From Vicinamibacterales bacterium (GTDB lineage Bacteria > Acidobacteriota > Vicinamibacteria > Vicinamibacterales > UBA2999): 64,000 bases of DNA. The position numbers and the translations under genes are program-made. The notes under the pieces are model-generated. The model was given only the letters and a program-made list of their open reading frames with translations. It did not search any database and was not told the origin of the DNA. Of the stretch, positions 17,206 to 36,967 are shown in pieces (the first letter of the stretch is position 1; the number at the start of each line of letters is the position of its first letter). The stretch is from the NCBI GenBank assembly GCA_036742665.1, contig DAINQP010000004.1, forward strand, positions 382 to 64,381, in the 5' to 3' direction.

Positions 17206-17414
17206 AGCATGACGACCACGTTACATGTGTGTTAATTATTTCGGCTCAATGAGGGAATGGAAATAGGAGGTGAAAGGTCTTAGGTAGCAACGAGAAGCTC
17301 GGGCTGAAGGGCAGATTTTAAGTAGTGGTTCGCGGTCCGTCATCCTTCGTTTACACCCCCCGCATAACCTGCCTCGGACACGGTGGCAACCCAGTTCATG
17401 CGGAGGTGAGTGTG

Positions 17415-22161: not shown

Positions 22162-22874
22162 CCGGGATGGATCAGCCGATCGACGCGGGTGCGGTCGTGG
22201 CAGAAGCGATGGGCACCTCGTTTCTGCTCGCGGCGGTGGTGGGGAGCGGCATCATGGGCGAGCGCCTCGCCGGCGGCAATGTCGCGATCGCGCTGTTGGC
22301 GAATTCTCTCGCCACTGGAGCGGCATTGACCGCGCTCATTCTGGCCTTCGGGCCAATCTCTGGCGCGCACTTCAACCCGGTCGTGACGATGGTGGAGGCC
22401 GTGCAGGGGCGGCTGTTGCCGAAGCAAGCAGTCAGCTACGTGCTTGCGCAGGTCCTGGGGGCGTTTACTGGCGTCATCGCCGCACAGGTCATGTTCTCGG
22501 AGCCGCTGTTGCTGGCGTCGACGCACGAACGCAGCGGCTTTGCGCAGATGTTCAGCGAGTTCGTGGCGACCTTCGGCCTCGTCACCGTCATCTTCACCGT
22601 CTCACGGAGCCGTGCATCTGCGGTTCCGTTCGCGGTCGCGGCGTACATCGTCGCCGCCTACTGGTTCACGTCGTCAACGTCGTTTGCCAATCCCGCGGTC
22701 ACGGTGGCTCGCGGGTTTACCAACACCTTTACTGGTATTCGTCCAGCCGACGTGCCCGTATTCCTAGTCGGCCAGGTTGGTGGCGCGGTCGCATCGATGG
22801 TGATGTGCCGATGGCTGGCTGGAGGCGTGGCCCGGGCGAAGGACGAGGTCGAGTCGCGAGTGCCGGTGCCATGA
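22146..22874 (+). CDS. aqpS: MIP-family aquaglyceroporin (AqpS-type arsenite channel)
   Basis: GAHFNPVVTM (first box is NPV rather than NPA) and SFANPAVTVAR (second NPA). Six hydrophobic helices. Overlaps the arsR end. Confidence 0.8.
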   Translation: MLRGMTGMDQPIDAGAVVAEAMGTSFLLAAVVGSGIMGERLAGGNVAIALLANSLATGAALTALILAFGPISGAHFNPVVTMVEAVQGRLLPKQAVSYVLAQVLGAFTGVIAAQVMFSEPLLLASTHERSGFAQMFSEFVATFGLVTVIFTVSRSRASAVPFAVAAYIVAAYWFTSSTSFANPAVTVARGFTNTFTGIRPADVPVFLVGQVGGAVASMVMCRWLAGGVARAKDEVESRVPVP

Positions 22875-23257
22875 AGTCGATCGTGTTCGCGTGTGTTCAC
22901 AATGCCGGTCGCTCACAAATGGCCGCGGCATTTCTCAATCAGCTAGCCAACGGCAAGGCACGCGCGGTGTCCGCCGGAACGGACCCGGGCACACGCGTGC
23001 ATCCGGAAGTGGTCCAGGCGATGAAGGAAGTGGGTGTCGACCTGGCTGTCGCCGTGCCGCAGAAACTCACGACCGAGTTGGCGTCCGATGCAGATCTGTT
23101 GATCACGATGGGCTGTGGCGACGAGTGCCCATACGTTCCTGGCGTCATGCGAGACGACTGGCCGCTCGACGATCCCAAGGGCCGAAGCCTCGATGACGTC
23201 CGCCGGATTCGCGACGACATCCGCCGCCGCGTCGTCGAATTACTGAACGGGGTCTGA
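22871..23257 (+). CDS. arsC: Arsenate reductase, low-molecular-weight PTPase type
   Basis: ATGA start/stop overlap with aqpS. IVFACVHNAGRSQMA (CX5R-S P-loop) and MGCGDECP. The stop codon TGA lies in the first unit of REP array A. Confidence 0.85.
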   Translation: MKSIVFACVHNAGRSQMAAAFLNQLANGKARAVSAGTDPGTRVHPEVVQAMKEVGVDLAVAVPQKLTTELASDADLLITMGCGDECPYVPGVMRDDWPLDDPKGRSLDDVRRIRDDIRRRVVELLNGV

Positions 23258-23285
23258 CCCGGGGTCAGACCCCGGGTCAGACCCC
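23249..23285. repeat. REP family a, array A: three tandem 12-nt palindromic units GGGGTC(T/A)GACCC
   Basis: ggggtctgaccc ggggtcagaccc cgggtcagaccc c. Reads as GSDP/GVRP in shadow ORFs. Confidence 0.85.
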
Positions 23286-23466
23286 AACGACAAGTGTCAA
23301 CGGCGGTTGTCGCGTCGACAATCACGCGACAGGTTTTCCTCACGAACTTCTTGGCTCGCCTATTGAAAGCTCGGGTTCGAGATTTCAACAGGCTTGTCAC
23401 GCGTGCGGTGTTCGAGGCGGCAGATCCTGCCAAAGTACCGACGTCGCGCCCATCGATGCCGAAATT

Positions 23467-23503
23467 GGGGTCAGACCCGGGGTCAGACCCCGGGTCTGAC
23501 CCC
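23467..23503. repeat. REP family a, array B (inverted relative to array A)
   Basis: ggggtcagaccc ggggtcagaccc cgggtctgaccc c. Contains the phoR-like stop codon (23483-23485). Confidence 0.85.
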
Positions 23504-25267
23504 GCCCTCACCTGGCAGGGTCACGGTGAAGACGGCGCCGCCGGTGACGGCATTCTCCGCGCGGGCATCGCCGCCGTGCAGCTCCACCAGATGCTTGACG
23601 ATCGCGAGACCGAGTCCGGTCCCGCCTGGCCGCGCCCGTGACTTGTCCACGCGATAGAACCGCTCGAATACCCGTCCGAGATCCTCTGGCGGAATCCCCG
23701 GCCCCGAATCGGCGACCGTGATCGTGTATTTCCCATTCAGACGCGACGCCGCCAGCGTGACATCCGCACCATCGGGCGAATAGTTGACCGCGTTCTCCAC
23801 CAGATTGCGAACGATGTCGTGCAGCTTGGCCGGATCGCCCTCGACCTGCGTCGCATCCTGCGCCACCTCGATCGCCACACGCTGGCCCTTCGCCTCGATC
23901 GACGGCGACAGATCGGCAATGACGCCGCTGAAGATCTGTCGCACGTCACAGCGCGTCATCTCCAGTGCCTCCTGACGGGCATCGAGCCGCGCCAGCCGCA
24001 GCAGATCTTTCACCAGCCGCTCCATTCGCGTGGTATGGCGCGCGATGATCTCGAGAAACTTCTGCGTGCCGTCAGCAACGCCTGCGCCACCGGCGCCCTC
24101 GTCGAGCAAGGCCTCGACGTAACCGCGAATCGCCGTCAACGGCGTGCGAAGCTCGTGCGACACGTTGGCGACGAAGTCGCGCCGGATCTGATCGGCGCGC
24201 CGCAGGTCGGTGATGTCGTGCAGCACGAGCACTGCGCCACCGCCGCCGCTGCCGGAAACAGACGCGGCACGCGCAAAAAACGTACGCCCCGGGTCGCGCG
24301 TCAGCGCCACCTCCAGGCTGCCCGCATCCTCACCGCTCAGCGCGCGGGTGAGCTGCGCCGCGATATCAGGGTGACGAATCACCTCGAGATACGAACGGCT
24401 CGTCGCCGACGGATCGACGCGCAGCATCTCCTGCGCCGCACGATTCACAAGCTGCAACCGTCCTTGCCGATCGACGAGGAGGACGCCTTCGACCATGCCG
24501 GCGAGAATCGCTCCCATCCGCGCGCGATCGCGGGAGAGCTCTTCGAGCCGCCCACCGAGTTCCTGCACGGACGTATCGAGCGCACGGGCGACCGTGCCGA
24601 GCTCGTCGTTGCCGTAGTCGTAGGTCGATCGCGAGAGATCGCCGGCTGAATACCGGTCGGCGACGCGGGCAATCGCTTGCACCCGTCGCGCGAGCGGCGC
24701 CGACAGGATCCACGACACGATGAGCGCCAGCGGAATCGCGACCGCCATCGCCGTCAACGCCGCGCGTCGAATGGCCGCGAGTTGTTCATCGATGTCAGTG
24801 AGCGGAAGAGCGAGACGCACATATCGCACCACCGGATGCGATGCACGAACGGCGACGTACAGCATGTCGGTATCCACAGTTGTGCTGTATCGCTGGCTGG
24901 TGCCGAGGCCTCGCTGGCGTGCGGCGACGACTTCCGGCCGTAACGCGTGATTCTCGAGCGAGTCGAGGGTCTCGGCAGGCTGCGTGGAATCGCCCACCAC
25001 ACGCCCGTCCTCGGCAACCAACGTGATGCGAGTGGAGACGAGCTGCCCGAGCCGATCGGCTTCGGCGTCGAGTGCCCGGCCATCGATGGCCGGCGCTTGT
25101 GACAGGAGTTCGGCGATGAGCCGCGCTTCATCGGCGAGCCGCTGCTCGAGCGCAGATCGCTGCTGGCTGCGAGCCTGCCACGACAGCAACGCGGCGAGCG
25201 CGACCAGCGATACTGCGGCCGCCACCACAGAGGCAACGAATACCTTGGTGCGAAAGCTGGTGCGCAT
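23483..25267 (-). CDS. phoR: PhoR-like sensor histidine kinase (TM-sensor-TM, HAMP, PAS, HisKA, HATPase)
   Basis: VSHELRTPLTAIRGY H-box; NLVENAVNY, DSGPGI and GGTGLGLAIV ATPase boxes. Last gene of the DUF47-pit-phoB operon. Confidence 0.75.
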   Translation of the reverse strand: MRTSFRTKVFVASVVAAAVSLVALAALLSWQARSQQRSALEQRLADEARLIAELLSQAPAIDGRALDAEADRLGQLVSTRITLVAEDGRVVGDSTQPAETLDSLENHALRPEVVAARQRGLGTSQRYSTTVDTDMLYVAVRASHPVVRYVRLALPLTDIDEQLAAIRRAALTAMAVAIPLALIVSWILSAPLARRVQAIARVADRYSAGDLSRSTYDYGNDELGTVARALDTSVQELGGRLEELSRDRARMGAILAGMVEGVLLVDRQGRLQLVNRAAQEMLRVDPSATSRSYLEVIRHPDIAAQLTRALSGEDAGSLEVALTRDPGRTFFARAASVSGSGGGGAVLVLHDITDLRRADQIRRDFVANVSHELRTPLTAIRGYVEALLDEGAGGAGVADGTQKFLEIIARHTTRMERLVKDLLRLARLDARQEALEMTRCDVRQIFSGVIADLSPSIEAKGQRVAIEVAQDATQVEGDPAKLHDIVRNLVENAVNYSPDGADVTLAASRLNGKYTITVADSGPGIPPEDLGRVFERFYRVDKSRARPGGTGLGLAIVKHLVELHGGDARAENAVTGGAVFTVTLPGEGGVRPGV

Positions 25268-25314
25268 ATCCGGGGCAGATCGTGATTCTTGCGCTCGAGG
25301 CGTTCACGCAAGAA

Positions 25315-26004
25315 TCAAGACATGACGCCATCTTCCACAAGCTTGTAACCGAACTGTTTCACGGTCACGAGCGCGTCAACCAGGAACGGTAATTTTTCAC
25401 GCAGCCGCCGGACGTGGACGTCCACGGTGCGTGTCCCTCCCGTATAACGGTAGCCCCAGACGTCACCGAGCAGCAGATCCCGCGAGAGGACACGTCCGCG
25501 ATGCTGCAGCAAGTACTGCAACAGCATGAACTCCTTGGCCGTCAGCTTCACCTCACGTCCCTCGTCCAGCACGGTATGCCGGCCCAGGTCCATGACCACT
25601 GGGCCGAACGCAAGCGTTGAGCCTTCCGGCTCCGTCCGCTTCGATCGGCGCATCAACGCGCGCACGCGCGCGACCAGCTCGTTGGGGCTGAACGGCTTCG
25701 AAATGTAATCGTCGGCGCCGATTTCGAGACCGATGATGCGGTCGCTCTCTTCGGCGCGCGCCGTGAGCATGATGATCGGAATCGCCGCAGTGTTCTTGTC
25801 CGCCCGCAGCGCACGACAGACTTCCAGGCCGCTCAAGCCTGGCAGCATGATGTCGAGGATGACGAGGTCGGCCGGGTTGCGGCGGGCGCTGGCCAGTGCC
25901 TCGTCCCCGGTTCCCGTGATGTGTGCGCGCCAACCGGCGCGCGAAAAGTAGTGGGCAATCAGATCGGCGATGTCGCGATCGTCCTCGGCGACGAGTATGT
26001 TCAC
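25315..26004 (-). CDS. phoB: PhoB-like OmpR-family response regulator
   Basis: MNILVAEDDRDI...DLVILDIMLPGLSG...GADDYISKPFSPNEL...TVDVHVRRLREKL. Confidence 0.8.
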   Translation of the reverse strand: MNILVAEDDRDIADLIAHYFSRAGWRAHITGTGDEALASARRNPADLVILDIMLPGLSGLEVCRALRADKNTAAIPIIMLTARAEESDRIIGLEIGADDYISKPFSPNELVARVRALMRRSKRTEPEGSTLAFGPVVMDLGRHTVLDEGREVKLTAKEFMLLQYLLQHRGRVLSRDLLLGDVWGYRYTGGTRTVDVHVRRLREKLPFLVDALVTVKQFGYKLVEDGVMS

Positions 26005-26094
26005 GTCGCCGTCATTATCCCATGCGGCTTACAACGTTCGCCGGCCGCTCCCGCCTTCGCCCCCGGCGCGACGCGGACACGTTGGTGGGACACG

Positions 26095-27117
26095 TCAGGC
26101 GGCGCGGAAGATTGCTCGAATCAGACCATAGGCGATGGCGCCGATCGCCGCTGACGCCGGAATCGTCAGCATCCACGCCCAGACGATCTGGCCTGCGACT
26201 CCCCATCGTACCGCCGACAGCCGTTTGGTCGATCCGACGCCGACGATGGCCCCCGTGATCGTGTGCGTTGTGCTGATGCCGGTCCCCATCGCGGTCGCGG
26301 TATAGATCGCCAGCGCAGCCCCCGTCTCAGCGGCGAAACCGCCAATCGGTTGCAGCTTGGTGATCTTCGATCCCATCGTCTTGATGATGCGCCAGCCGCC
26401 CGACAGCGTGCCAAGGCCAATCGCAGTGTAGGCCATCAGCTCGACCCAGATCGGGATGGGCAGCTTGCCTGCGGCATCGCGGTCCAGAAAACCGCCCGTG
26501 AACAAGGCTCCGGCCATGATGCCCATGGTCTTTTGCGCGTCGTTCGCACCGTGCATCAGGCTGAATGCCGCAGCGGAGAGCAGCTGCATACGACGAAAGA
26601 ACGCATCGACGCGCCGAGGCGTGGCGTTCCTGAATATCCAGTGGCTGAGGGTCATCAGCGTCAGGCCGACGACGAGTCCAATGAACGGGGCGATGACGAT
26701 GAAGATCAGCGTTTTTGTCCAGCCGGAGACGATGATGGCGGCGAAGCCGGCCTTCGCAACGGCGGCGCCGGCGTAGCCACCGAACAGCGCGTGCGACGAG
26801 CTGGTCGGCAACCCGAAATACCACGTGATCAAATTCCACAAGATCGCCCCGGTGAGACCGCCGAAGATGACAGCGAACGTCACCACGTTCAGATCCACCA
26901 TCCCTGAGCCGACGGTCTGCGCGACGCCCGTCCCGAAGAAGAATGCCGCGGCGAAGTTGAAGAACGCTGCCCACAGCACCGCTTGTCCCGGGGTCAGCAC
27001 GCGTGTGGAGACGACGGTGGCAATCGAGTTCGCGGCGTCGTGGAAGCCGTTGATGTAATCGAAGATCAGCGCAACGCCAATGAGCGCGAGGACCGGCAGC
27101 AGCAGTGGGTTGTTCAT
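26095..27117 (-). CDS. pit: PiT-family inorganic phosphate transporter
   Basis: FDYINGFHDAANSIATVVST at the N-terminus, duplicated GANDAQKTMG motif, ~10 TM helices. Confidence 0.9.
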   Translation of the reverse strand: MNNPLLLPVLALIGVALIFDYINGFHDAANSIATVVSTRVLTPGQAVLWAAFFNFAAAFFFGTGVAQTVGSGMVDLNVVTFAVIFGGLTGAILWNLITWYFGLPTSSSHALFGGYAGAAVAKAGFAAIIVSGWTKTLIFIVIAPFIGLVVGLTLMTLSHWIFRNATPRRVDAFFRRMQLLSAAAFSLMHGANDAQKTMGIMAGALFTGGFLDRDAAGKLPIPIWVELMAYTAIGLGTLSGGWRIIKTMGSKITKLQPIGGFAAETGAALAIYTATAMGTGISTTHTITGAIVGVGSTKRLSAVRWGVAGQIVWAWMLTIPASAAIGAIAYGLIRAIFRAA

Positions 27118-27132
27118 GCGTGGGCGGATGTG

Positions 27133-27756
27133 TCAGCCGTGCTTGACGACCACGCCTTCGAGGAGGTTGCAGACGTCTTCGCACCGGTCAGTCGCAGCCT
27201 CCAGGAAGTCGAAGATCTCCTTCCACTTGATGACCGCGATCGGGTCGCGTTCCTCGTCGAACAGCGCGACGATGGCGTCCTGGTGTACGCGGTCGGCTTC
27301 ACGTTCGAGCTGATTGACGCGCGCGGCGAGCTCCAGCACGCCCTGGCTCTGCTTCTCGAGGATGGACAGTGCCTCGGTGATCCGGTCGCAGCAGTCGCAA
27401 ATGATGTCGGCGAGCCGGCGGGCGTGCGGTCTGATGTTGGTGATCTTGTAGAGGCGAATAACCGCGGCAGCCGCGTCAATCGCGTCCATCACGTCGTCGA
27501 GGGAAATCGCGAGAGCGTGGATGTCCTCGCGGTCCAACGGGGTGACGAACGTCCGGTTCAAACGGTCGATGATCGACCGGGTCCGGCCGTCGCATGCATG
27601 TTCGATGTCCTTGATGACATCCGCTTTGGCCATATCCGGCGGATTGCTCGAGACCATCTGCTTGAGCGTCCGTGCGCCGACGCGGATCTCCTCGGAAAGG
27701 CCGACGAAGTCGTGAAAAAACTGTTCTTCGCGGGGAATCAGACTGAAACGGGCCAT
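27133..27756 (-). CDS. DUF47 / PhoU-like phosphate-transport regulator (YkaA/PitR type)
   Basis: MARFSLIPREEQFF...; an all-helical ~207-aa protein directly upstream of pit. ATG at 27756 is preceded by GAGGTG. The track ORF extends spuriously to 27867. Confidence 0.8.
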   Translation of the reverse strand: MARFSLIPREEQFFHDFVGLSEEIRVGARTLKQMVSSNPPDMAKADVIKDIEHACDGRTRSIIDRLNRTFVTPLDREDIHALAISLDDVMDAIDAAAAVIRLYKITNIRPHARRLADIICDCCDRITEALSILEKQSQGVLELAARVNQLEREADRVHQDAIVALFDEERDPIAVIKWKEIFDFLEAATDRCEDVCNLLEGVVVKHG

Positions 27757-27777
27757 GTCACCTCGACAATCGACGGA

Positions 27778-27817
27778 TCGTAACAGATTTAACCCATCTG
27801 TTACATGACCGTTACAG
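27778..27817 (-). promoter_or_regulatory. Pho-box-like array upstream of DUF47-pit-phoBR
   Basis: In gene orientation: CTGTAAC ggtc ATGTAAC agat GGGTTAA atct GTTACGA, heptamers at an exact 11-bp period. The same sequence also reads as a perfect 9-7-9 palindrome GTAACAGAT-N7-ATCTGTTAC (27780-27804). A possible -10, TTAAAT, is embedded. Confidence 0.4.
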
Positions 27818-27918
27818 CCTCTTCGGGTGAGGAGCACTCGACGCCGAGTGAGCGCACCCGCATCCACACATGCTCTAGGGAACGCGCAGTCGCGGTTATT
27901 GCGTCGAGGAAGATTTCG

Positions 27919-28740
27919 TTACTTCCCGACCCACGTGAAGTTCACGCCCGCGCCGCCGAGAGCCGCCGCCGGCGACACCGCGAACCGTGCGTTGCCGTGG
28001 CCGATCGTGACCGTGCGACCCGCAACCATCCCGATCGCCGCGCCAAAGGCGACGTCGCTGAAGTAATGACGTTGACTCTGGATGCGAGACGCCGCCACAT
28101 ACGACGCGACAGCATAGGCCGGGATGCCCGCCTTCCACCCGAGATGGCGCTGGAGTACCGTGGCCGTTGCGAAGGCCGATGCCGAGTGTCCCGACGGGAA
28201 CGAAAGCGATGTTCCGTCCGGACGTGTGCGGCCGGTACCGAGCTTGATGACCTGCGTCATCGTTTGCGAGACGAACTGCGCGCGGACGAGATCGGCGCCG
28301 ATGATCGCCAGGTTCGGATTACCGGTGGCCCGGCCGATCGAGTATGTCGCGAAGGCCGCCGCGAGCTGCGTCGTGGCCGCGCCAACCGTTTGTCCGGCGC
28401 CGAACGCCCCGTGCATCGATTGGGCACCCGAAAACGATTGTGACAAACGTGCGTCGGAAGGATGACCGGCGGCTGCAGTCAGCCCGCCAATTCCCAGGAT
28501 AATCGCCGAGTCACGAGACGGCACGCGTCGGAAATCGGTGATCGTATCGGCGAAAATCCGTCCAAGACTGGGCACGAAATCCGCGGCGGGCCGGGCGTTG
28601 AGCGTTGGAGCAACGGGCATCGGCGCAAGTGTTTGCGCCGACAAGTCACGGGGAACGAGTGTGATCCCGGTCCACAGTGTGGTTGTGATCAAGAAGGCGT
28701 ACGCAGGTTGTCTCATGGAATCGTGCCCATCCGAGTACAA
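27919..28740 (-). CDS. PAP2-family (type 2 phosphatidic-acid-phosphatase-like) membrane phosphatase
   Basis: KLGTGRTRPDG ... SFPSGHSA ... ASRIQSQRHYFSDV (the three PAP2 motifs) and an N-terminal signal/TM segment. Confidence 0.8.
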   Translation of the reverse strand: MYSDGHDSMRQPAYAFLITTTLWTGITLVPRDLSAQTLAPMPVAPTLNARPAADFVPSLGRIFADTITDFRRVPSRDSAIILGIGGLTAAAGHPSDARLSQSFSGAQSMHGAFGAGQTVGAATTQLAAAFATYSIGRATGNPNLAIIGADLVRAQFVSQTMTQVIKLGTGRTRPDGTSLSFPSGHSASAFATATVLQRHLGWKAGIPAYAVASYVAASRIQSQRHYFSDVAFGAAIGMVAGRTVTIGHGNARFAVSPAAALGGAGVNFTWVGK

Positions 28741-28764
28741 GCGTCGATCGTTGGAACGACGGTT

Positions 28765-30456
28765 TTACTTTTGGACGACCGACTTGCTGGTTCGGTCGAG
28801 ACCGACCGTCTCCCACTGCGTGCCGTTGCGGCGGAAGGTAAACGTAACGGGGTTGGACCATGCCGGATAGTCCGCATGGATCGAGCGGATGCTGACGCTG
28901 AGAAATGCTGAATCGAGCAAAGCCTCTGGCGTCTCGATGCGAACGCCATGCAAGACGCCGTTCGTACGGCCGACCGTGGTGCCGTCGACGAATTGACTCG
29001 TTGCGCCAGTCGCGTTGTCGAAGCGCGACCATGTGAATCGGTATTCGCTGGGAGCGGTGGCAATGCCCGCCTCGACCGCCGCGTTCTCGAACATCAGCCC
29101 GCCGTCTACGAGGAGCTGCGCGTTCACGAGAGGATTGACACCAGTCAACCACGCACGCAGGACCTTGTCGCGCCGTTTGATTAATGTGGTGGCAATGTGC
29201 TCGGCCGCACCCGGCTCGCTATATCTGGCTTTGGCCACCACGGCGCGAATTACCTCATCGCTGAACTTCGACACCAGCCGCGCGGCCCAGAACGCATCCT
29301 GCGGCGTCATGTTGTCGAAGGCCGGGTTCGGATACTCGGGCCGCCATTGGACCGGGTCGAAAAAATCTCCTTCGAACCTGCCGACGGACTTCGCGCCTTC
29401 CCAGTAGTCCACCAGGATCCATGGCCGCACATAGATGCCGAGTGTCGCGAGCGTCTTGAACCCAGGTCCCCATTCGAGGATGTACTCGTTGCCTGCACGC
29501 GGCACCTGCGCCGTCGTGCTGCCGCTGCCCATGATCGAGCCGAAGTCGAACATGTAGTGGCGGATCCACTGACGACCGGGCGCCTCACCTTCGAGCATGT
29601 CGAGGCTGTTGAGGCCGCGCGAGTCGTCATGATTGAGCCACGCAGCGAACACACGGTTGCTACGAAGCTCACGCCGGTGCTCGTGCGGGTGAATGTCGTT
29701 GGGGTCGTCCGGTCGCGTGCCGTAGTACTTGAAATATCCGAGCGGCTTGCCATCGGCAAAGCGGCTGAGGGTCGCGCGGTATTTGCCATTGGGCAGCTTC
29801 GCCGCCACACGGAGCAGCCGATCGACGTTCGTGCGTGTAATCGGGACCTTGCGACCACGCAGATCCACGGTGGTCGCGTTGGGGGCGATGACGATCCTGG
29901 CCGGGTCCACCTCGACGATGTAGCCCTGCACTACGTTGTAACCAATCGCGTGATAGAAGGCGGCACCGATCACTTCGGCCCCGCTCGCCATCTCTGGATT
30001 GCTCGGCGGATCGAACTTCACCTGGTACAAACGCCCATCCGGCGCGACGACGCGATAGCCGGGTGTGATGCCGCTGCTCTTGCCCTCGATGACCGGCCAG
30101 TCGTCGATATTGAGCGCATCCAGCGTGTTCGGTCCGCGAACGATCTCATCGACCGACATGCCGGGGAGGCGGCCGATCCGGTTGGTGAACCAACTCGAAT
30201 CCGGGACTTCGTCGATCGTGTTGACGTTGACGGCCTGAATCGGCCGACGTTCGGCGGGCTTGATGAACGTCTGCTCGGCGAAGTCGTAGGCATTGCTGCC
30301 TTCGATTCGTACCGCCTTGCTCGCATCGAGGGCGCGGTCGAAGTCCTCCCGCGCCGGGTCGTCGGGGAAGTAAACCGGTGTGGCGCTTCGCGTCGTCAAC
30401 GTCAAAGCGACACAGGCGATCGCGGCGAGCGGCAGCAGCCACCGCCTAGAACACAT
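28765..30456 (-). CDS. Exported protein with a protein-kinase-like fold motif set (uncharacterised family)
   Basis: N-terminal signal or possible lipoprotein sequence MCSRRWLLPLAAIACVALTL. RLYQVKFD (beta3 Lys), GAEVIGAAFYH (alphaC Glu), WLNHDDSRGLNS (HxDxxxxN with canonical spacing), HYMFDFGS (DFG). Confidence 0.55.
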   Translation of the reverse strand: MCSRRWLLPLAAIACVALTLTTRSATPVYFPDDPAREDFDRALDASKAVRIEGSNAYDFAEQTFIKPAERRPIQAVNVNTIDEVPDSSWFTNRIGRLPGMSVDEIVRGPNTLDALNIDDWPVIEGKSSGITPGYRVVAPDGRLYQVKFDPPSNPEMASGAEVIGAAFYHAIGYNVVQGYIVEVDPARIVIAPNATTVDLRGRKVPITRTNVDRLLRVAAKLPNGKYRATLSRFADGKPLGYFKYYGTRPDDPNDIHPHEHRRELRSNRVFAAWLNHDDSRGLNSLDMLEGEAPGRQWIRHYMFDFGSIMGSGSTTAQVPRAGNEYILEWGPGFKTLATLGIYVRPWILVDYWEGAKSVGRFEGDFFDPVQWRPEYPNPAFDNMTPQDAFWAARLVSKFSDEVIRAVVAKARYSEPGAAEHIATTLIKRRDKVLRAWLTGVNPLVNAQLLVDGGLMFENAAVEAGIATAPSEYRFTWSRFDNATGATSQFVDGTTVGRTNGVLHGVRIETPEALLDSAFLSVSIRSIHADYPAWSNPVTFTFRRNGTQWETVGLDRTSKSVVQK

Positions 30457-31672
30457 GGCCGAACCTCATGATGAAGTGCGCGCCCGCAGAACTGCCGAAC
30501 GCACCCTCGACACGGAGGAACACGCCGTTGGCGGTGCCGAACCTGAACCCGATGCCGAAGTCGCGCTCGAAGTCGCTCAGGTGGAAATCCTGACGCCGCG
30601 GCGCAACCTTGCCGATGTCGTAGAAGAGCGCGCCATCGATGGCGGTGAAGATCTCCCAGCGATATTCGGCCTGGAACAGCAGCGTGTTGCGATCGCGGAA
30701 TCGGAAGTGGCGAAATCCTCGCAAGTCGTCGGGGCCGCCGAGCGTCGGCTGGAAATAGAACGGGACTTCTGCGCCCGCGTCCGCGTCGGTCATGACCGCA
30801 CGCGCGTGCAGGGCCAGCACGCGGCGATCGCGAACGATCGGCACATAGTGCTGCAGATCGATGTCCACGCGGTTGAACGAGAACAGATCGATTTCGGTAT
30901 CGTCGAAGCGATGATAGGTGACCGCGTAGCGGCCGCCCCGGCGCGGGTTGCCGAGCGGGGCGCGATTGTTGACGTCCAACGTGGCCAAGTACCTGAAGAA
31001 GTCCGGCTGTACGAGAACGCCGGGCGCATCAGCCGGTCCGAACACCCGCAAGAGGCTGTCCTCTTCGCTGATCGCGTCGATGTCGGGGTTGTAGTAATCG
31101 AGACCCGCGGTCAGATTCAGCCACGCCATCGGCCGGTAGGTGCCATACCCGCCAAGCACGGTGTTCCTGAGACCGTAGATGACCTCGTCGTCGCGTGACG
31201 AGTCAGGCCCGAGACCGAAGAAGTCCTCCTTCGGAAAGTCGTAGCGTTGCGCGTGCACGCCCAGCCCCACCCTTCCGTTGGCCAGCCGCGGCGCCTGCAG
31301 GCGCGCGTCGATCATCCAGTAGTGGGAGAACGACGCGGCGACGAAGCTGCTGAACTCGAGTTGTCCGTCGAACCAGCGCGGATAGCGGTATCCGGGGCCG
31401 AACGAGAAGCCGCTACCCGTCGTGATGTTACCGATTTTCGGATAGAGCCCTTCGGCAGGATTCAGGATGCGCTCGAAGACGCGGCCGCTTTCGAGGTCCA
31501 TCAAGGCCCGCTCGAGGCGGCTCTGTTGCGGCGGCGCGAGGTTCAGCGCCTTCTCCTCGCGCTCACGCTGCAGCGTTTCGGCGCGCGTCTTCGGCTCTTG
31601 AGCCTTCGTCGCGGCCGGCGCGACGACGCACACGACGAACGTGAGGAGCCGAATGAGTCCCACCTGTCGCAT
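30446..31672 (-). CDS. Omp85/Bac_surface_Ag-type outer-membrane beta-barrel without POTRA domains
   Basis: Signal peptide ...VAPAATKAQ; TLGGPDDLRGFRHFRFRDRN...AEYRWEI...FYDIGKV...GIGFRF; terminal aromatic ...RFGHVF. Confidence 0.65.
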   Translation of the reverse strand: MRQVGLIRLLTFVVCVVAPAATKAQEPKTRAETLQREREEKALNLAPPQQSRLERALMDLESGRVFERILNPAEGLYPKIGNITTGSGFSFGPGYRYPRWFDGQLEFSSFVAASFSHYWMIDARLQAPRLANGRVGLGVHAQRYDFPKEDFFGLGPDSSRDDEVIYGLRNTVLGGYGTYRPMAWLNLTAGLDYYNPDIDAISEEDSLLRVFGPADAPGVLVQPDFFRYLATLDVNNRAPLGNPRRGGRYAVTYHRFDDTEIDLFSFNRVDIDLQHYVPIVRDRRVLALHARAVMTDADAGAEVPFYFQPTLGGPDDLRGFRHFRFRDRNTLLFQAEYRWEIFTAIDGALFYDIGKVAPRRQDFHLSDFERDFGIGFRFGTANGVFLRVEGAFGSSAGAHFIMRFGHVF

Positions 31673-33018
31673 TACGCCGCGTGGCGCTCTGAGGTTTCAG
31701 CGCCCACCATTTTGCGATGTTCGCGCGCGATGCCGACTGCGAGCAACAGCCACACACCCACGAGTACCACGTTCACCAGCGCGAAGCTGCGGAGGGTCAA
31801 CGAAAGCACTTCGGTGCCGAGGAAGACTACAGCCGCCTGCAGCAGATCGCCGGTCCTGACGAAGAAGGCATCTATGGCCTGCTTGGCGTTGTACTTGGCC
31901 TCGCGGCTCGTCGGCAGGAACAGCGCGTGCCGGGTCGTGTTCTGGATCGAGTAGTCGGTGGCGTTCTCGAAAATCTTCGTCCACTGCAGAACGAGCAGCA
32001 CGGGGACTAGCAGGACGGCGGTGTATCCGCTCAAGGCGATCAGCGGCAGGACGAACAGCGCGCCGCGGACACCGATGTACTTGAAAATTCTCGAGACGGC
32101 GAATGTCTGCAAGATGAACGCGAGAATGTTCACCGACGAGAGGACCGTGCCCGAGAGCGAGGCGATGATCGCGCGCCGATCGGCGGCGGCGGCGAGACCG
32201 GCCGCGATACGCGCGTCGGCCGTTTTCGTGATGAGGTCGTTGAGCATGAATCCGCCGAGCGTGTTCACGAGATTGAAGACCAGCACCATCAGCGCAATCA
32301 GCAGCAGGTAGCGATTGGTCAGCACGAGCTTGAAGCCGTTGCTGCCTTTCGCAAGCGGCTGCTCGCTGACAACCTGCGCGTCGCGCCGCATTTCAGCCTC
32401 TCGACGGTTGACGACGATCGTGAGGACTACCGGGACCAGCATGCCAGCGGCGGCGACCAACATGAGCACATAGGGACCGATGCCGCCAAATACCAAAGTC
32501 GCCAGCAGTGAACCGAGCGCCGCGCCCAGCGTCGCGCCGACGCCGACCAGCGGAAAGAGTCGCTTGCCCCGCTCGGAGTTGTAGACGTCGTTGGCGAACG
32601 CCCAGAACTGTGCGACCGCCACCATGTTGAAGACGCCAATCCAAATGTAGAACGCCACGCCGATGCGCACACCGGCCGACCCGAGCGCCCAGAAGACCAG
32701 CAGATGCGACGCGAAGAACAGCGTCACGCCGCAGACCAGCCAGACGCGATTGACGCGCGCCGAGAAAGCGCTGTAGGCAGGGACGAAGATAAAGAGGATC
32801 GCCGCCATGCCCGCGGCAGCATAGCTCGCCGCGACAGCGCCCGACTCGCTGAGGATCAGCGCTTCGCGAACCAGCTTCAGGACCTGGTAGAACGCGAGCA
32901 GGTAAAAGGCATTGGCCGCGAGCAGCAGGGCGCTGACGCCTTCGCCCGCCCGCACCTCCGTCACGACCGAGAGGGCACGTTCGAGGAGACTCTTCTGCGA
33001 CGGAGCGGTGTCCAGCAT
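31672..33018 (-). CDS. 12-TM transporter resembling the TLC (ATP/ADP or nucleotide antiporter) / MFS family
   Basis: The N-terminal pattern FYLLAFYQVLKLVREALIL..GA....YAAAG resembles the TLC signature (F..Y.ilR..Kd.L). ~12 hydrophobic segments. The family assignment is by eye only. Confidence 0.5.
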   Translation of the reverse strand: MLDTAPSQKSLLERALSVVTEVRAGEGVSALLLAANAFYLLAFYQVLKLVREALILSESGAVAASYAAAGMAAILFIFVPAYSAFSARVNRVWLVCGVTLFFASHLLVFWALGSAGVRIGVAFYIWIGVFNMVAVAQFWAFANDVYNSERGKRLFPLVGVGATLGAALGSLLATLVFGGIGPYVLMLVAAAGMLVPVVLTIVVNRREAEMRRDAQVVSEQPLAKGSNGFKLVLTNRYLLLIALMVLVFNLVNTLGGFMLNDLITKTADARIAAGLAAAADRRAIIASLSGTVLSSVNILAFILQTFAVSRIFKYIGVRGALFVLPLIALSGYTAVLLVPVLLVLQWTKIFENATDYSIQNTTRHALFLPTSREAKYNAKQAIDAFFVRTGDLLQAAVVFLGTEVLSLTLRSFALVNVVLVGVWLLLAVGIAREHRKMVGAETSERHAA

Positions 33019-33027
33019 CAGCAGATG

Positions 33028-34695
33028 CTATATCGTGACGGCCTCCGCTGTATCACGCCGCGGTTCGCTGACCTTGAGCGGCCCCGACAGCTGTGGCAGG
33101 TGCATCCGCCACCAGCCCTTGGCTTCGTCCGAGTTCCATTCGTCGCGAATCCGCACGCGGCAGGCCATCTGATACAACTCGCCGGCGTCCTGTGGCCGAT
33201 GGCGCGGATCTTTCTGCAGGCAGGCGAGGACCAGTTCATCCAGCTCACGCGGAACCGTTTGCTCGGTCCTCTCCGACGGCGGCGTCGGCTGCGCGTGCAG
33301 GTGCTGCATCAGCATCTTCATTGAGGTGTCGGCCTCGAACACGAGTTCCCCGGTGAGCAGGAAGTATGCGACGCAGCCCAGGGAATAGACGTCGGCCCGG
33401 CGGTCCACTTCGGCGTCGCCGAGGATCACCTCGGGTGCCATGTAGGCCGGTGTACCCGGTGTCGAGTTCTCGCGTGTCGCGAGCGTCTGCGCGTCGCGCC
33501 CCTGGCCTGATGATGTCTGTATCTTGACCAGGCCGAAGTCGAGCACCTTGGCAAAGTCGTATTCCAGCCCCATGCGGCAGACATAAATGTTGGCCGGCTT
33601 GATGTCGCGATGCACCAATCCTCGCGCGTGCGCATCGGCGAGCGAATGACACACCTGGCGCAGCAAGTAGAGGACGCGATTCGGCGGCAACGGTCCAAAC
33701 TCGCGGACCAGCGATTCGAGGTCGCGGCCGGTGAGCAGCTCCATCACGTAGTAGAAGGTTCCGTCCTGCGTGATGCCGAAGTCGAACACCTGAATCGTGT
33801 GCGGTGAGCTCAGCACCGCAGTGGCCTGCGCTTCGCGCTCGAACCGTTTCAGCGTCAGCCGCGCTTCGTTCTCGTCGCGTGCCCCGAGCACTTCCGGCCG
33901 CACCAGCTTGATCGCGGCATCGCGCGCCAGCAGCCGATGCTCGGCGCGCCACACCTCGCCCATGCCTCCGGTGCCAAGGCGTTCGATCAGGTGGTAGCTG
34001 CCGAGATCCTGCGCCTCGCGCAAACGGCGGCCGAGCCGCTGCAGCACTCGCGCCGGCACCACCGCGACGAACGCACACGCATAGCTGGGCCAGGTAATGA
34101 TGAACACGTAGGCCGGGTCCAGCGCCCTGCCGCCCAGCAGCCAGGCGATCGAGTACGCGATCGGATCGAATGACGCGACGATGATCGACGCGATGAACAT
34201 GCGCCGCGGCGTGCTCGGTGCGATCATCGCGAAGATGAGGATCAGCAGGCAGATCCACGAGATCCGCATGATGTCGGTGCCGGCCGGCGGCACCGCCCAC
34301 GCATTGAACGCCGCGATCCCGGCGCCGTGCATCAACATCATCGCGACGCCGGCGTTGCTCTTGCTCTCGATGCTGGTACTGGCGCTGCGCAGGTGCCAAT
34401 ACATCACCGCCGAACCGGTGACCCCGCACAATTGCAAGATGATCGCCCGCAAGTTGCGGACCCAGCCGTTCCACAGCCACGGCATGACGAACGAGTCCAG
34501 CATCAGGGCGAAGGTCCACAGCACCAGTGCCACCGTGCTGAACACGACCAGCCGCTGGGCCTGCTCCGACAGCAGCTCCGTTGGCAGCCGCGTCGTTCGG
34601 CCTGAATCGCCGATCGAGGACGCCGGCGTGGCGTGCGGTGCAATTCGACGTGATTCGTGGCTCGTGCCCATCCGGGGTTCCGTGCCCTCAGGCAC
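33028..34695 (-). CDS. Ser/Thr protein kinase with an N-terminal ~6-TM domain and a C-terminal Hanks kinase domain
   Basis: LGTGGMGEVW, AAIKLV, HRDIKPANIYV, DFGLVK, GTPAYMAPE. The kinase occupies residues ~235-500, preceded by six hydrophobic helices. The GTG start overlaps the upstream stop (GTGCCTGA). Confidence 0.85.
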   Translation of the reverse strand: MPEGTEPRMGTSHESRRIAPHATPASSIGDSGRTTRLPTELLSEQAQRLVVFSTVALVLWTFALMLDSFVMPWLWNGWVRNLRAIILQLCGVTGSAVMYWHLRSASTSIESKSNAGVAMMLMHGAGIAAFNAWAVPPAGTDIMRISWICLLILIFAMIAPSTPRRMFIASIIVASFDPIAYSIAWLLGGRALDPAYVFIITWPSYACAFVAVVPARVLQRLGRRLREAQDLGSYHLIERLGTGGMGEVWRAEHRLLARDAAIKLVRPEVLGARDENEARLTLKRFEREAQATAVLSSPHTIQVFDFGITQDGTFYYVMELLTGRDLESLVREFGPLPPNRVLYLLRQVCHSLADAHARGLVHRDIKPANIYVCRMGLEYDFAKVLDFGLVKIQTSSGQGRDAQTLATRENSTPGTPAYMAPEVILGDAEVDRRADVYSLGCVAYFLLTGELVFEADTSMKMLMQHLHAQPTPPSERTEQTVPRELDELVLACLQKDPRHRPQDAGELYQMACRVRIRDEWNSDEAKGWWRMHLPQLSGPLKVSEPRRDTAEAVTI

Positions 34696-36967
34696 CCTTG
34701 TCCACGCGTTTGCGCAGCTCTTCGAGATTCAACATGATCGACTCATTCGATCGCAAGAGGTCGGCCAGGATCTCATCTCGCTGGCGGACGTCGCGCGGTG
34801 CCGCCTGTTCGCGGCCGAGGAACGGCCACAAACGCTGACTCAGGTCCTGCGGCAGTACGCCTTCGAGATACTCGAGCGCCGTGCCGCGCAGCTTCGGATC
34901 GTCGGTGTGAAGACCGCGATAGGCAATTTGGAGCGGTGCCGTCGGCAGCACGAGCGACAACAGGGTGAAGACATGCGCGAGGCTCTGGCCCGCCCGATCC
35001 TTCAGGAACTCATCGACAAACGACCGCTGCTCGGGATCGATGCTGTCGAGCAGACGATGACTCTGCCACACCGGACGGCCGACCGCCACTTCCTTGCGCA
35101 CCACGTCGAATACGCGCTCGCGATCGATCCGGACGCGTGGATTCTTCTCGAGGATCGACGACAGCGATCGGCCGCACTGAAATCGTACTTCGAAGCGCAG
35201 ATCCTCGAGACCGAGCAACAGCCCATCGACTGCGCGCTGTGACACGCAGATAGAAAACACCCGCGCCAGCCGCCGCCGGACGGCGAATGGCTGGTTGGGA
35301 TCGAGCAGGGCGTCGATCAGCTCACCGACACGTTCCTCGGCAATCTTGCGCAACGCCCGCACGGCGTCTTCGGCGACCGGATCCCAGGCGAGGAGGGGGA
35401 TCACGTGTGGGACCAGTGTCGGCGGGAGCCCTTCCTCGTCGCGCAGCACACTGAGGACGCGGTCCCGATTCCGCGACTTCAGCGCCATGATCTCCATCAC
35501 CTCCGGGTCGCCGACGGGAACCGGGTGCTCCATGGTCATCGCACCCGTCAATGAGGTCGTCACGATCGTACGGTCGCGTGTCAGGCCGGCCGTGAACGGC
35601 GTGCGGAGCGTGCGAATCATCGCCGTGCGCGTCGTGATGTCTTCCACGTCCGACAAGTCGAGTTCGACCGCGCGATCGAGCAGGCTGCGCTCGAGTGTCT
35701 GGATATAGCCGGTACTGAGTCGTCTCGCCACGACGATCGCCACCCCGGAACATGCAACGGCGGCGAGCAGGATCGCGCCGTATTGCTGCGTCGCCGGGAG
35801 CAGGATGAGCAGCCGCACCACACCACCGCCGACCGCATCGCCGAGCCGATCGAAGCCGACATCGATGATCGACTTGGCGGCGCGTTTCTCGTCGGCCGGG
35901 ATCGGCGTATAGAAGATCTCGTAGCCAGTCCGGAACAGCGAGCCGCGGAAGACCGACTCACCCGTGCGCGCGAGCAGCGCGCCAGCCAGGCCAGGAAACG
36001 CAAGTCCGAGCAGGCCGCCGACCGTCAGCGCGATTGACGGCGTGCTTGCTGTAAGACCCAGGCCCAACCGCTCTAGCGCCAGGGCGCTCGACGTGGTCTG
36101 GACCAGGAACGACAACAAGCTGACACCCGCGTAATAGAGCGCGAAAAAGCGCAGCAGGCTGTCGCCGCGTCCGAACGTCTCGACGGCCTGAGCCTTGAAG
36201 ACGTAGTCGGCCAGCGCGGCGCCGATCGTCCCGAGCAGCACGAGTGCCGCGAGATTGCGCAGATACGGTGCCTGTGCCAGCACATGGAGACCAGACTGCG
36301 GCGACGTCGCGGCCAGATCAGGCGGCACAGTCTCGAGCGTGGCGTGCTGCGAAGGCGGCGCCGATTGCGCAAGCCGCCGAATCTGCCAGGCGCAGAACAC
36401 GTTGACAACGGCCAACAGCGGCAGCATCGCCGTCACCCCAACCATGACCGCCACGCGTTCGGCGACGAGCGCACCACCAAGGCCGGCGAGCGTCCCGACG
36501 CCGGCGATTCGGCCGAAGTGATGCCGTGCGGTGTGCGGATCGAAGCGCTCGGTGGCAATCAGCCAGAAGCTCGAACCGAGCATTGGACCCAGACCGGAGA
36601 TCTGCAGGTAGACCAGCCGCGCCGCCAGGACCGGCGTCGAGAACGTCAGCAGCCACGAGGCAAACAGCAGGGCGCCGCTGAGCGCGAAGGCAATTGGCAC
36701 GAACGTCGCCGGCGATACCCTCTGCAGGCCACGCGAGCTCGCTATCACAAGGAGGATCGACACCACGGCTGTGGCGATCACGATCGTCGGCAGCGTTGTA
36801 ACGTCGAGGTTCGCGAGGTACAGCGCGTCCCGCGTGGCCTTACCGGCGATGAACTGCGCGCTCACGGCCGCCGAGCAGATCATCGCGATCATGACTGCCG
36901 GGTCGGCCCGGGTCTGTGATGAGGTCATCGGAACAGTCGGGGTACGGGGAATGCGCGCCTTCGGCAC
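34688..36967 (-). CDS. TLC/MFS-like polytopic transporter fused to a ~330-aa C-terminal HEAT/ARM-like helical repeat domain
   Basis: N-terminal GKATRDALYLANLDVTTLP... pattern and ~12 TM helices, then repeated ~30-aa helical units (..VIPLLAWDPVAEDAVRALRKI.., ..LLDPNQPFAVRRRLARVF.., ..GLHTDDPKLRGTALEYL..). GTG at 36967 is preceded by GAGGGG. Confidence 0.5.
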   Translation of the reverse strand: MPKARIPRTPTVPMTSSQTRADPAVMIAMICSAAVSAQFIAGKATRDALYLANLDVTTLPTIVIATAVVSILLVIASSRGLQRVSPATFVPIAFALSGALLFASWLLTFSTPVLAARLVYLQISGLGPMLGSSFWLIATERFDPHTARHHFGRIAGVGTLAGLGGALVAERVAVMVGVTAMLPLLAVVNVFCAWQIRRLAQSAPPSQHATLETVPPDLAATSPQSGLHVLAQAPYLRNLAALVLLGTIGAALADYVFKAQAVETFGRGDSLLRFFALYYAGVSLLSFLVQTTSSALALERLGLGLTASTPSIALTVGGLLGLAFPGLAGALLARTGESVFRGSLFRTGYEIFYTPIPADEKRAAKSIIDVGFDRLGDAVGGGVVRLLILLPATQQYGAILLAAVACSGVAIVVARRLSTGYIQTLERSLLDRAVELDLSDVEDITTRTAMIRTLRTPFTAGLTRDRTIVTTSLTGAMTMEHPVPVGDPEVMEIMALKSRNRDRVLSVLRDEEGLPPTLVPHVIPLLAWDPVAEDAVRALRKIAEERVGELIDALLDPNQPFAVRRRLARVFSICVSQRAVDGLLLGLEDLRFEVRFQCGRSLSSILEKNPRVRIDRERVFDVVRKEVAVGRPVWQSHRLLDSIDPEQRSFVDEFLKDRAGQSLAHVFTLLSLVLPTAPLQIAYRGLHTDDPKLRGTALEYLEGVLPQDLSQRLWPFLGREQAAPRDVRQRDEILADLLRSNESIMLNLEELRKRVDKGA

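Follow-up and report, generated by a model that had tools for sequence, protein, structure and literature searches.

A predicted exported protein-kinase-like enzyme family paired with Omp85 barrels in Acidobacteriota

We report a gene from a soil acidobacterium (Vicinamibacterales bacterium, assembly GCA_036742665.1, contig DAINQP010000004.1) encoding a 563-aa protein with a probable export leader and a predicted protein-kinase-like (PKL) fold, which belongs to a large family with no name in the databases searched. Its genes are nearly always paired with a gene for a predicted outer-membrane barrel of the Omp85 superfamily and often lie beside genes for ATP/ADP-carrier-like transporters. This association hints at ATP-driven phosphorylation outside the cytoplasm, something not known in bacteria; however, activity, location and substrate are inferred only. 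The gene lies at 28765..30456 on the minus strand of the analyzed window, a stretch of 64,000 nucleotides to which all coordinates refer.

Predicted fold and active site

The gene was first flagged in an earlier note, made from the sequence alone, as encoding a secreted protein or possible lipoprotein with the full motif set of a protein-kinase-like fold. This observation is confirmed and its interpretation is supported, with some corrections. The note did not state the strand: the ORF is on the minus strand, with an ATG start, while the plus-strand translation of the same interval is full of stops. A plus-strand ORF at 29197-30471 (424 aa) is a high-GC shadow ORF; the conserved homolog family matches the minus-strand product.

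Scans of the protein against Pfam (at E <= 0.01) and NCBIfam recovered no hits, and a Pfam scan of 10 distant or long relatives likewise returned nothing significant (at E <= 0.1). A single-sequence search of PDB sequences yielded only a chance 20-residue match to adenylate kinase at E of about 1, and a family-profile search hit only designed armadillo repeats via a repeated 26-residue segment, which we rejected as a repeat artefact. The protein nevertheless has at least 7,913 homologs (3,460 clusters at 50% identity), mainly from Acidobacteriota, whose members, where named, are called only 'hypothetical protein'. An AlphaFold2 model (pLDDT 93.7, pTM 0.92) predicts a bilobal kinase-like fold, and the 50 best PDB matches recovered with it by Foldseek are all PKL enzymes: these include PINK1 (E = 3.9e-4), Fam20C (probability 0.98), HipT (TMt 0.40), the hydra Fam20 (TMt 0.42), HipA, Rio2, SidJ and PknG. 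These matches are, however, remote, with TM-scores of about 0.3-0.4 and 9-13% identity.

The predicted PKL core spans residues 121-440 (29137..30096) and comprises, in order: β1; a Gly-rich-like loop, K126-SSGITP-G133; β2; β3 with K147; αC with E161; β4-β5; an insert (189-240); an invariant block (248-265, RPDDPNDIHPHEHRRELR); αE; the catalytic loop; the DFG motif; and a helical C-lobe (329-437). The motifs fall on the expected elements of the model: K147 is at the end of the strand 143-148, within LYQVKFD (residues 143-149; 30010..30030); E161 is in the helix 156-171, which contains GAEVIGAAFYH; the catalytic loop HDDSRGLN (residues 276-283; 29608..29631) directly follows the helix 267-274; and the DFG-type metal-binding motif in HYMFDFGS (residues 300-307; 29536..29559) directly follows the strand 297-302. 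The catalytic loop, H276-x-D278-x-R280-x-x-N283, shows the HxDx[KR]xxN pattern and spacing of Hanks Ser/Thr kinases.

Across 97 relatives with 30-86% identity these positions are well conserved: K147 in 91, E161 as E or D in 89, H276 in 71, D278 in 89, R or K at position 280 in 81, N283 in 92, H300 in 95, D304 in 96, F305 in 83 and G306 in 82; 84 of the 97 keep K, D, N and D together. The canonical Lys-Glu pair is not universal, however, as one paralog clade (19-20 of 57 full-length loci) has Glu in place of the β3 Lys. K126 of the Gly-rich loop is conserved in both clades; it may substitute for the β3 Lys, as in WNK kinases, or the chemistry may differ. Moreover, the most strictly invariant residues (R93, D251, D254, H258, R262, R265, D387, W390 and R428) are not classic kinase residues. 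An hhalign comparison with the profile of the Hanks kinase domain encoded in the same operon places the catalytic loop on LVHRDIKPAN and aligns the DFG together with it, but this sequence-only support is not significant (E = 0.074, probability 0.8%).

The core is flanked by an N-terminal leader and extension and by a C-terminal domain. The leader (residues 1-24, MCSRRWLLPLAAIACVALTLTTRS; 30385..30456), of which the earlier note had given the first 20 residues (MCSRRWLLPLAAIACVALTL), has R4-R5 as its n-region, a hydrophobic h-region of about 16 residues (6-21; helix 7-19 in the model) and a likely signal-peptidase-I site, TRS-A, where the hyphen marks the inferred cleavage. A hydrophobic leader is present in 96 of the 97 relatives, and the cleavage-type motif is conserved in position across homologs (TRS-A, GRA-A, AQA-Q), at a conserved distance before PxFFPDDP. 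The lipoprotein option raised in the note is not supported for this protein: although AIAC is present, Cys15 is replaced by G, S or A in close homologs, and a lipobox-like string occurs in only 28 of the 97 relatives by a crude regular expression. The N-terminal extension (residues 25-120; 30097..30384) is mostly non-regular structure modelled with high confidence and carries the conserved FFPDDP and DEVPDSSWFTNRIG motifs, with R93 invariant. The C-terminal all-β domain (residues 443-555; 28792..29130) is about 115 aa, rather than the approximately 200 aa suggested in the note; it is the most variable part of the protein and gave no Pfam hit when scanned alone.

Conserved gene neighborhoods

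The most informative feature, missed by the earlier note, is the partner gene immediately upstream (30446..31672, minus strand), which overlaps the start codon region of the target by 11 nt. It encodes a 408-aa Omp85-family protein (PF01103) with a signal peptide and a C-terminal RFGHVF. Its model, which is only moderately confident (pLDDT 71), shows helices at 30-70 followed by a barrel at 75-404 and no POTRA domain, as in the 'noNterm' class; BamA and TamA barrels are its top PDB hits at probability 1.0 (TamA TMt 0.72), and the L6 LRGF and β13 FYDxG motifs are invariant. An Omp85-like gene lies upstream of the target in 71 of 75 loci; three of the other four are contig-edge cases, and in the fourth the gene is still found by tblastn. 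The pairing also holds in paralogs at 45-50% identity and in Marinimicrobia and Bryobacteraceae relatives.

Further upstream on the same strand are three genes for membrane proteins. The first (31672..33018), which overlaps the Omp85 gene by 1 nt, encodes an NTT/TLC-like inner-membrane carrier (448 aa, about 12 TM segments; PF03219, 38.6 bits against a cut-off of 21) whose best PDB hit is the ADP,ATP carrier NTT1 (9j3j, E = 2.3e-6). The next (33028..34695) encodes a membrane-anchored Hanks Ser/Thr kinase (555 aa) with a polytopic N-terminal domain (about residues 49-213) followed by a Pkinase domain at 234-502 (PF00069, E = 4e-43); such a kinase co-occurs with the cassette in 29 of 75 loci. 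The third (34688..36967) encodes a 759-aa carrier with a TLC-like membrane domain (PF03219, 32.6 bits) and a C-terminal HEAT-like repeat domain, supported by a weak HEAT_2 hit and AlphaRep hits at 530-620; this NTT-HEAT architecture has been described, with unknown function (PMC5381601). The two TLC-like carriers noticed earlier are thus real, and NTT1 is the only transporter among their PDB matches, but their membership in the NTT family is distant: TIGR00769 scores 35 and 27 bits against a cut-off of 387. Such carriers lie within 10 kb in 27-29 of 75 loci, in at least five gene orders, in several clades and in relatives down to about 35% identity, whereas about 60% of loci have no NTT-like gene within 10 kb.

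Downstream by 24 nt is a gene for an exported PAP2-family phosphatase (27919..28740, minus strand; 273 aa; PF01569), with weak PDB hits to phospholipid phosphatase 2 and LpxE. PAP2 genes are present in 25 of 75 loci and Metallophos genes in 7 of 75, and these neighboring proteins carry Sec- or Tat-type N-terminal signals. It is followed on the same strand (23483..27867) by genes for PhoU_div/DUF47 (27133-27867), a PHO4/Pit transporter (26095-27117), a PhoB-like regulator (25315-26004) and a PhoR-like kinase (23483-25267). PhoBR and Pit/PhoU genes recur within Vicinamibacteria; PhoB- or PhoR-type genes lie within 10 kb in 32 and 28 of 75 loci, in two arrangements, including one with Omp85, target, PhoB and PhoR contiguous on one strand. 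Automatic upstream regions were unreliable because longest-ORF starts are imprecise; a quantitative scan for tandem half-sites of the TGTCAT-N5-TGTCAT type in 33 upstream regions showed no enrichment of an E. coli-type Pho box over background (mean best score 7.27 against 7.14). A promoter and terminator scan of 22800-37400 was uninformative, with counts at or below the shuffled expectation.

Functional interpretation

These observations are compatible with an envelope phosphotransferase that works at the Omp85 barrel, a reading we consider about as likely as not. Under this proposal, the protein, after export and leader cleavage, would stay in the envelope and work at or on the periplasmic face of its Omp85 partner, much as PlpD holds its enzyme domain in the periplasm (PMC11116518). 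With a canonical kinase active site, it would transfer phosphate from a nucleotide to an envelope substrate, which could be a protein, lipid or glycan. The NTT/TLC-like carriers would exchange cytoplasmic ATP for periplasmic ADP to fuel it, the exported PAP2 or Metallophos phosphoesterases would remove or process the phosphate, and the membrane Ser/Thr kinase and the HEAT domain of the larger carrier would regulate the supply. In many Vicinamibacteria the linkage to PhoBR and Pit/PhoU genes suggests a role in the phosphate response.

Several alternatives appear less likely. The strict one-to-one, translationally coupled pairing of an Omp85-family gene with a signal-bearing protein follows the genetic logic of TpsB/TpsA systems, and the barrel keeps motifs used by translocating and inserting Omp85 proteins; hence, the PKL protein could be cargo delivered to the cell surface or medium, there to act on extracellular substrates, as do the secreted kinases Fam20C and CotH, or to capture extracellular nucleotides. 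We regard this as unlikely: the barrel lacks the POTRA domains that known TpsB transporters need to recognize cargo; the target is a predicted globular PKL domain rather than a TPS-domain β-helix; for noNterm Omp85 proteins an extracellular dome has been argued to block transport (PMC11358297); and the supposedly secreted PlpD passenger turned out to be periplasmic (PMC11116518). Outside the cell ATP supply would be an even harder problem, and the inner-membrane carriers would have no obvious role. A similarly improbable option is a phosphorus-scavenging module, in which the PKL protein binds or hydrolyzes nucleotides in the periplasm and, with the exported phosphoesterases, NTT-like importers and Pit, harvests phosphate or nucleotides under PhoBR control. 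The Pho gene adjacency, the recurrent phosphoesterases and the fact that characterized NTTs are nucleotide importers (PMC5381601) favor it; however, conservation of the catalytic Asp, Asn and DFG Asp with a D+2 Arg/Lys points to phosphotransfer more than to simple binding, no role is apparent for the Omp85 barrel, no Pho-box-like motif is enriched, many loci lack any nearby Pho gene, and the distant clades keep the NTT, Ser/Thr kinase and Metallophos genes but not PhoBR.

Less probable still is a pseudokinase that merely replaces the missing POTRA domains as a structural or ligand-sensing module in outer-membrane protein or lipid biogenesis. The pairing with a barrel lacking its own periplasmic domain, the Glu-bearing clade, the invariance of non-kinase residues and the presence of clearly degenerate members (in our numbering of relatives P0155, P0191, P0194 and the 1,158-aa P0134) are in line with it, but the complete catalytic set is intact in this protein and in 84 of 97 relatives, which is unusual for a scaffold, and the recurrent carrier neighbors argue that a nucleotide is consumed. 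Finally, as export is inferred from sequence features only, the hydrophobic segment could be an uncleaved anchor, or not used for export, of a cytoplasm-facing kinase. This is very unlikely: the short h-region and the positionally conserved small-residue site fit a cleavable signal better than an anchor, the partner is a predicted outer-membrane protein and the recurrent neighbors are exported enzymes.

A bolder possibility, which remains doubtful, is that the cassette is the core of a dedicated extracytoplasmic phosphorylation system, with the NTT and NTT-HEAT carriers running in reverse relative to those of parasites, a kinase docked on the POTRA-less barrel, and PAP2 or Metallophos enzymes as the matching phosphatases. 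If so, it would be the first ATP-fuelled kinase/phosphatase cycle described in a bacterial periplasm, and would assign a function to two orphan groups: the NTT-HEAT carriers of free-living bacteria (PMC5381601) and the noNterm Omp85 proteins (PMC4104836, PMC11358297). The periplasm probably lacks ATP, and known periplasmic phosphotransfer, such as that by LpxT, appears to use lipid-linked donors instead; our literature searches found no described periplasmic kinase of this type, Omp85-kinase pair or account of this PKL family.

Relationship to known systems

The protein shares with the atypical PKL branches (Fam20C/Fam20, HipA/HipT, Rio2, PINK1) the predicted bilobal fold and the canonical order and spacing of motifs; like Fam20C, it has an inferred secretion signal and long extra segments around the core. 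It differs in its invariant block, N-terminal extension and C-terminal β-domain, and it has no sequence-level membership in the Fam20C family (only a structural resemblance, TMt 0.38-0.42, about 10% identity) or the HipA family, its context being an envelope and phosphate operon rather than a toxin-antitoxin pair. With the Hanks kinase of its own operon it shares the catalytic-loop pattern (LNHDDSRGLN against LVHRDIKPAN) and DFG, but it has no PF00069 or PF07714 hit, has a large insert between β5 and αE and is probably exported, whereas the Hanks kinase domain is cytoplasmic.

The partner resembles noNterm Omp85 proteins (Heinz and Lithgow, 2014), such as Leptospira LIC12252/12254/12258, in having a 16-strand-type barrel with only a short helical periplasmic segment. 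No Pfam family other than PF01103 matched it, so it does not appear to carry the DUF5982 region described for some noNterm proteins; the Leptospira paralogs have different neighbors (a DUF1566 lipoprotein), and the PKL partner is not reported in the noNterm papers consulted. PlpD, the type Vd patatin-Omp85 protein of Pseudomonas aeruginosa, has an Omp85 barrel dedicated to one enzyme module residing in the periplasm, as is inferred here, but it is a single polypeptide with a POTRA domain and a lipase passenger, whereas here the enzyme is a separate protein with a predicted kinase fold. A PlpD-like gene even lies near one distant cassette (locus L073).

The gene and its predicted fold

The gene is an ATG-initiated ORF at 28765..30456 on the minus strand of the window, encoding a protein of 563 aa; the plus strand of the same interval is full of stops. 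The GC content is about 62-66% throughout the window and hence long shadow ORFs on the opposite strand are expected; however, the conserved homolog family matches the minus-strand product. All peptides listed in the earlier note as a leader and a set of kinase motifs are present: the leader at residues 1-24 (nt 30385-30456), LYQVKFD at residues 143-149 (nt 30010-30030), the αC segment MASGAEVIGAAFYHAI at residues 156-171, HDDSRGLN at residues 276-283 (nt 29608-29631) and HYMFDFGS at residues 300-307 (nt 29536-29559). The note had not stated the strand.

The protein hits nothing in Pfam (2025 copy) or NCBIfam 20.0 and nothing meaningful among PDB sequences. Nevertheless, at least 7,913 database proteins match it, and the 120 listed have no Pfam domain and no name beyond “hypothetical protein”. 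An exhaustive search of 50%-identity representatives recovered 3,460 clusters at E <= 1e-3, of which 905 are at E <= 1e-30. The genome hits are almost all Vicinamibacterales or Vicinamibacteria MAGs (Acidobacteriota), with some genomes carrying two paralogs, while more distant members come from Bryobacteraceae, other Acidobacteriota and Candidatus Marinimicrobia.

An alignment of 97 relatives at 30-86% identity yielded an AlphaFold2 model with a mean pLDDT of 93.7 and a pTM of 0.92. The order of its elements is: a signal helix (7-19); a well-packed but mostly non-regular N-terminal extension (25-120); three strands (121-125, 133-137, 143-148); a long helix (156-171); two strands (173-183); an insert (189-240); short helices (262-274); two further strands (284-289, 297-302); a helical lobe (329-437); and a separate β-domain (443-555), which at about 115 aa is smaller than the approximately 200 aa proposed in the earlier note. 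A Foldseek search of the PDB with this model returned only protein-kinase-like enzymes in the top 50: these include PINK1 (E = 3.9e-4), the Fam20C Golgi casein kinase (probability 0.98, TMt 0.38), hydra Fam20 (TMt 0.42), HipT and HipA (TMt up to 0.40), Rio2, SidJ, PknG, an alpha-kinase, amicoumacin kinase and haspin. The matches are remote (9-13% identity, TM about 0.3-0.4). This is therefore a new family of the superfamily, rather than a member of any named branch: the fold class is known, but the family is unnamed in the databases searched.

Predicted active site and inferred export

The residues proposed for catalysis sit where a kinase needs them: K147 ends β3, E161 lies in the αC-type helix, H276-D-D278-S-R280-G-L-N283 follows the αE-type helix, and D304-F-G follows the next strand pair. 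Across the 97 relatives, K147 is conserved in 91, position 161 is E in 70 and D in 19, H276 is conserved in 71, D278 in 89, R or K at position 280 in 81, N283 in 92, H300 in 95, D304 in 96, F305 in 83 and G306 in 82. K, D, N and D are retained together in 84 of the 97, and the exceptions include clearly degenerate members that look like pseudo-enzymes, such as the relatives P0155, P0191 and P0194. Some family members carry long C-terminal extensions with no Pfam match: P0134 (1,158 aa; positions 428-3904 of locus L071), P0209 (848 aa) and P0144 (742 aa). Of these, P0134 has a degenerate active site (S126, I147, A161, L278, R300, DFS) and is probably a pseudo-enzyme, yet it still follows an Omp85-like gene.

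The pattern HxDx[KR]xxN is that of the Hanks Ser/Thr kinases. A profile-profile comparison with the Hanks kinase encoded in the same operon is not significant (E = 0.074); nevertheless, its only local alignment superposes LNHDDSRGLN on LVHRDIKPAN and DFGS on DFGL at the same time. Two observations complicate a simple reading of the active site. The strictly invariant residues of the family are not the classic ones: they are R93, G172, D251, D254, H258, R262, R265, G310, D387, W390 and R428, several of which lie in the block RxDDPND..PHEHRRELR just before the catalytic loop. Further, the β3 Lys varies between clades: a paralog clade in Vicinamibacteria (19-20 of 57 full-length loci) has Glu at position 147 (“YQ[LV]E[VF]D”), while keeping all other catalytic and invariant residues. 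K126, at the start of the Gly-rich-like loop GKSSGxxPG, is conserved in both clades; it could take over the ATP-binding role, as in WNK kinases, although this is inferred.

The leader has a charged n-region (R4, R5), an h-region of about 16 residues and a T-R-S|A site. Homologs show equivalent sites (GRA|A, AQA|Q) at a fixed distance before the conserved PxFFPDDP motif. A hydrophobic leader is present in 96 of the 97 relatives, and 28 of 97 carry a lipobox-like string by a crude regular expression. Export and cleavage of the protein are inferred from these features, and are supported by the genomic context. The earlier note had also raised the possibility of a lipoprotein leader; however, Cys15 is not conserved, and this protein is probably not a lipoprotein.

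The Omp85-family partner and the accessory genes

The gene immediately upstream (30446-31672, minus strand) encodes a 408-aa Omp85-family protein (PF01103), with its own signal peptide and the outer-membrane-protein C-terminus …RFGHVF. Its stop codon lies 11 nt inside the target ORF (…CATGTGTTCTAG…), which suggests translational coupling. Its model (pLDDT 71) has about 40 residues of periplasmic helices followed by a barrel from residue 75 to 404, with no POTRA domain. The best PDB matches are the BamA and TamA barrels (probability 1.0, TamA TMt 0.72), and the hallmark L6 LRGF and β13 FYDxG motifs are invariant. It therefore belongs to the “noNterm” Omp85 class, whose function is unknown (PMC4104836; PMC11358297). 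All partner barrels share a conserved periplasmic N-terminal helix motif (Q/E-x-T-R-A-E-x-L-x-x-Q/E-R-x-E-K-A, with R30 and R38 invariant), which is a candidate docking site for the kinase-fold protein. In 75 loci analyzed with iterated profiles, an Omp85-like gene lies upstream of the target in 71; three of the exceptions have the target at a contig edge, and in the fourth tblastn still finds the gene. The pairing persists in paralogs at 45-50% identity, in Marinimicrobia, in Bryobacteraceae and in other distant members. This partner, which the earlier note had missed, is the strongest functional clue.

In the window, ten genes lie on the minus strand with gaps of 90 nt or less, or with overlaps: NTT-HEAT (759 aa), membrane Hanks kinase (555 aa), NTT-like carrier (448 aa), Omp85, target, PAP2, PhoU_div, PHO4/Pit, PhoB-like and PhoR-like. 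Within 10 kb of the target across the 75 loci, NTT-like carriers are found in 27-29, a Ser/Thr kinase in 29, PAP2 in 25, Metallophos in 7, a PhoB-type gene in 32, a PhoR-type gene in 28, PhoU_div in 23 and PHO4 in 22. The link to NTT recurs in several gene orders and clades: NTT-HEAT, kinase, NTT, Omp85, target; Omp85, target, NTT, with NTT-HEAT and kinase on the opposite strand; NTT, Omp85-like, target; NTT followed in frame by Omp85, then target, then Metallophos; Omp85, target, kinase, a 711-aa protein, and NTT on the opposite strand; and NTT-HEAT, cNMP-binding protein, response regulators, Omp85, target. In locus L075, an 848-aa ORF (3642-6188) consists of a TLC-like carrier followed in frame by an Omp85-like protein with its own internal signal peptide, and is either two genes with no intervening stop codon or a fusion.

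Both carriers of the window pass the PF03219 threshold, and the plastid/bacterial ADP,ATP carrier NTT1 is the only transporter among their PDB matches; they are nonetheless far from the characterized exchangers. The 759-aa carrier (34688-36967, minus strand) is of the NTT-HEAT type, with its C-terminal ~300 aa being HEAT-like repeats (alphaRep hits at 530-620). This matches the NTT-HEAT architecture reported as widespread in free-living bacteria with unknown function (PMC5381601). In a related locus (L077), a 921-aa NTT-HEAT gene is followed by a separate cNMP-binding gene, an arrangement described in the same work (PMC5381601). A conserved GGGTGATAC(C/G)ATG-like element lies about 40-50 nt upstream of the first gene of the cluster (window ~36999-37013, minus strand, upstream of the NTT-HEAT gene), and is also present upstream of the orthologous gene in the loci L004, L005 and L030; it may be a promoter or regulatory element. 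The membrane kinase of the operon is a bona fide Hanks Ser/Thr kinase (33028-34695, minus strand), whose N-terminal ~215 residues form a polytopic membrane domain (TM-like segments at 49-67, 142-160, 166-184 and 195-213, among others) with no Pfam match, and which travels with the NTT-like carriers in 29/75 loci.

The PAP2 and Metallophos neighbors have N-terminal export-type leaders, one of them with a twin-arginine motif, and the PAP2 protein is nearest to lipid-phosphate phosphatases. A second arrangement places Omp85-target-PhoB-PhoR contiguously on one strand, with Pit and PhoU_div nearby on the opposite strand; however, an E. coli-type Pho box is not enriched upstream.

A possible role in envelope phosphotransfer, and further neighbors

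Taken together, these observations best fit an envelope phosphotransfer module; the reading in the earlier note of an exported protein with a kinase-like fold is supported. Such a module, in which catalysis, a complex with the barrel and the direction of nucleotide transport are inferred, would consist of an exported kinase-fold enzyme acting at a POTRA-less Omp85 barrel; exported phosphoesterases that reverse or process the modification; and inner-membrane NTT-type carriers that could deliver ATP to the periplasm, with a membrane Hanks kinase and a HEAT domain as likely regulators. A precedent for an Omp85 barrel that keeps an enzyme in the periplasm and does not secrete it is provided by PlpD (PMC11116518). 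A PlpD-like patatin-Omp85 gene also lies about 5 kb upstream of a distant Omp85-target cassette (L073, 1-1915), next to a glycogen-phosphorylase-type gene and an exported Metallophos gene. We also considered a TPS-like secretion pair, a phosphorus or nucleotide scavenging pathway in which the protein binds or hydrolyses nucleotides, a non-catalytic accessory subunit, and a cytoplasmic location; none of these is excluded. The literature we searched contains no periplasmic kinase of this type and no kinase-Omp85 pairing. That the cassette represents a new type of system, in which ATP is exported to fuel periplasmic phosphorylation, is a possibility that we regard as rather unlikely on the present evidence.

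Next to the PhoR-like gene are a SAM methyltransferase (20857-21702, minus strand) and a 372-aa protein with a C-terminal LMW phosphatase/ArsC-type domain (22139-23257, plus strand), which may be arsenate-handling genes beside the phosphate genes. Two unrelated neighbors are a protein with three bacterial PH (bPH_2) domains (40387-42033, minus strand) and a 1,158-aa CarboxypepD_reg + OMP_b-brl_4 outer-membrane protein (17325-20801, plus strand).
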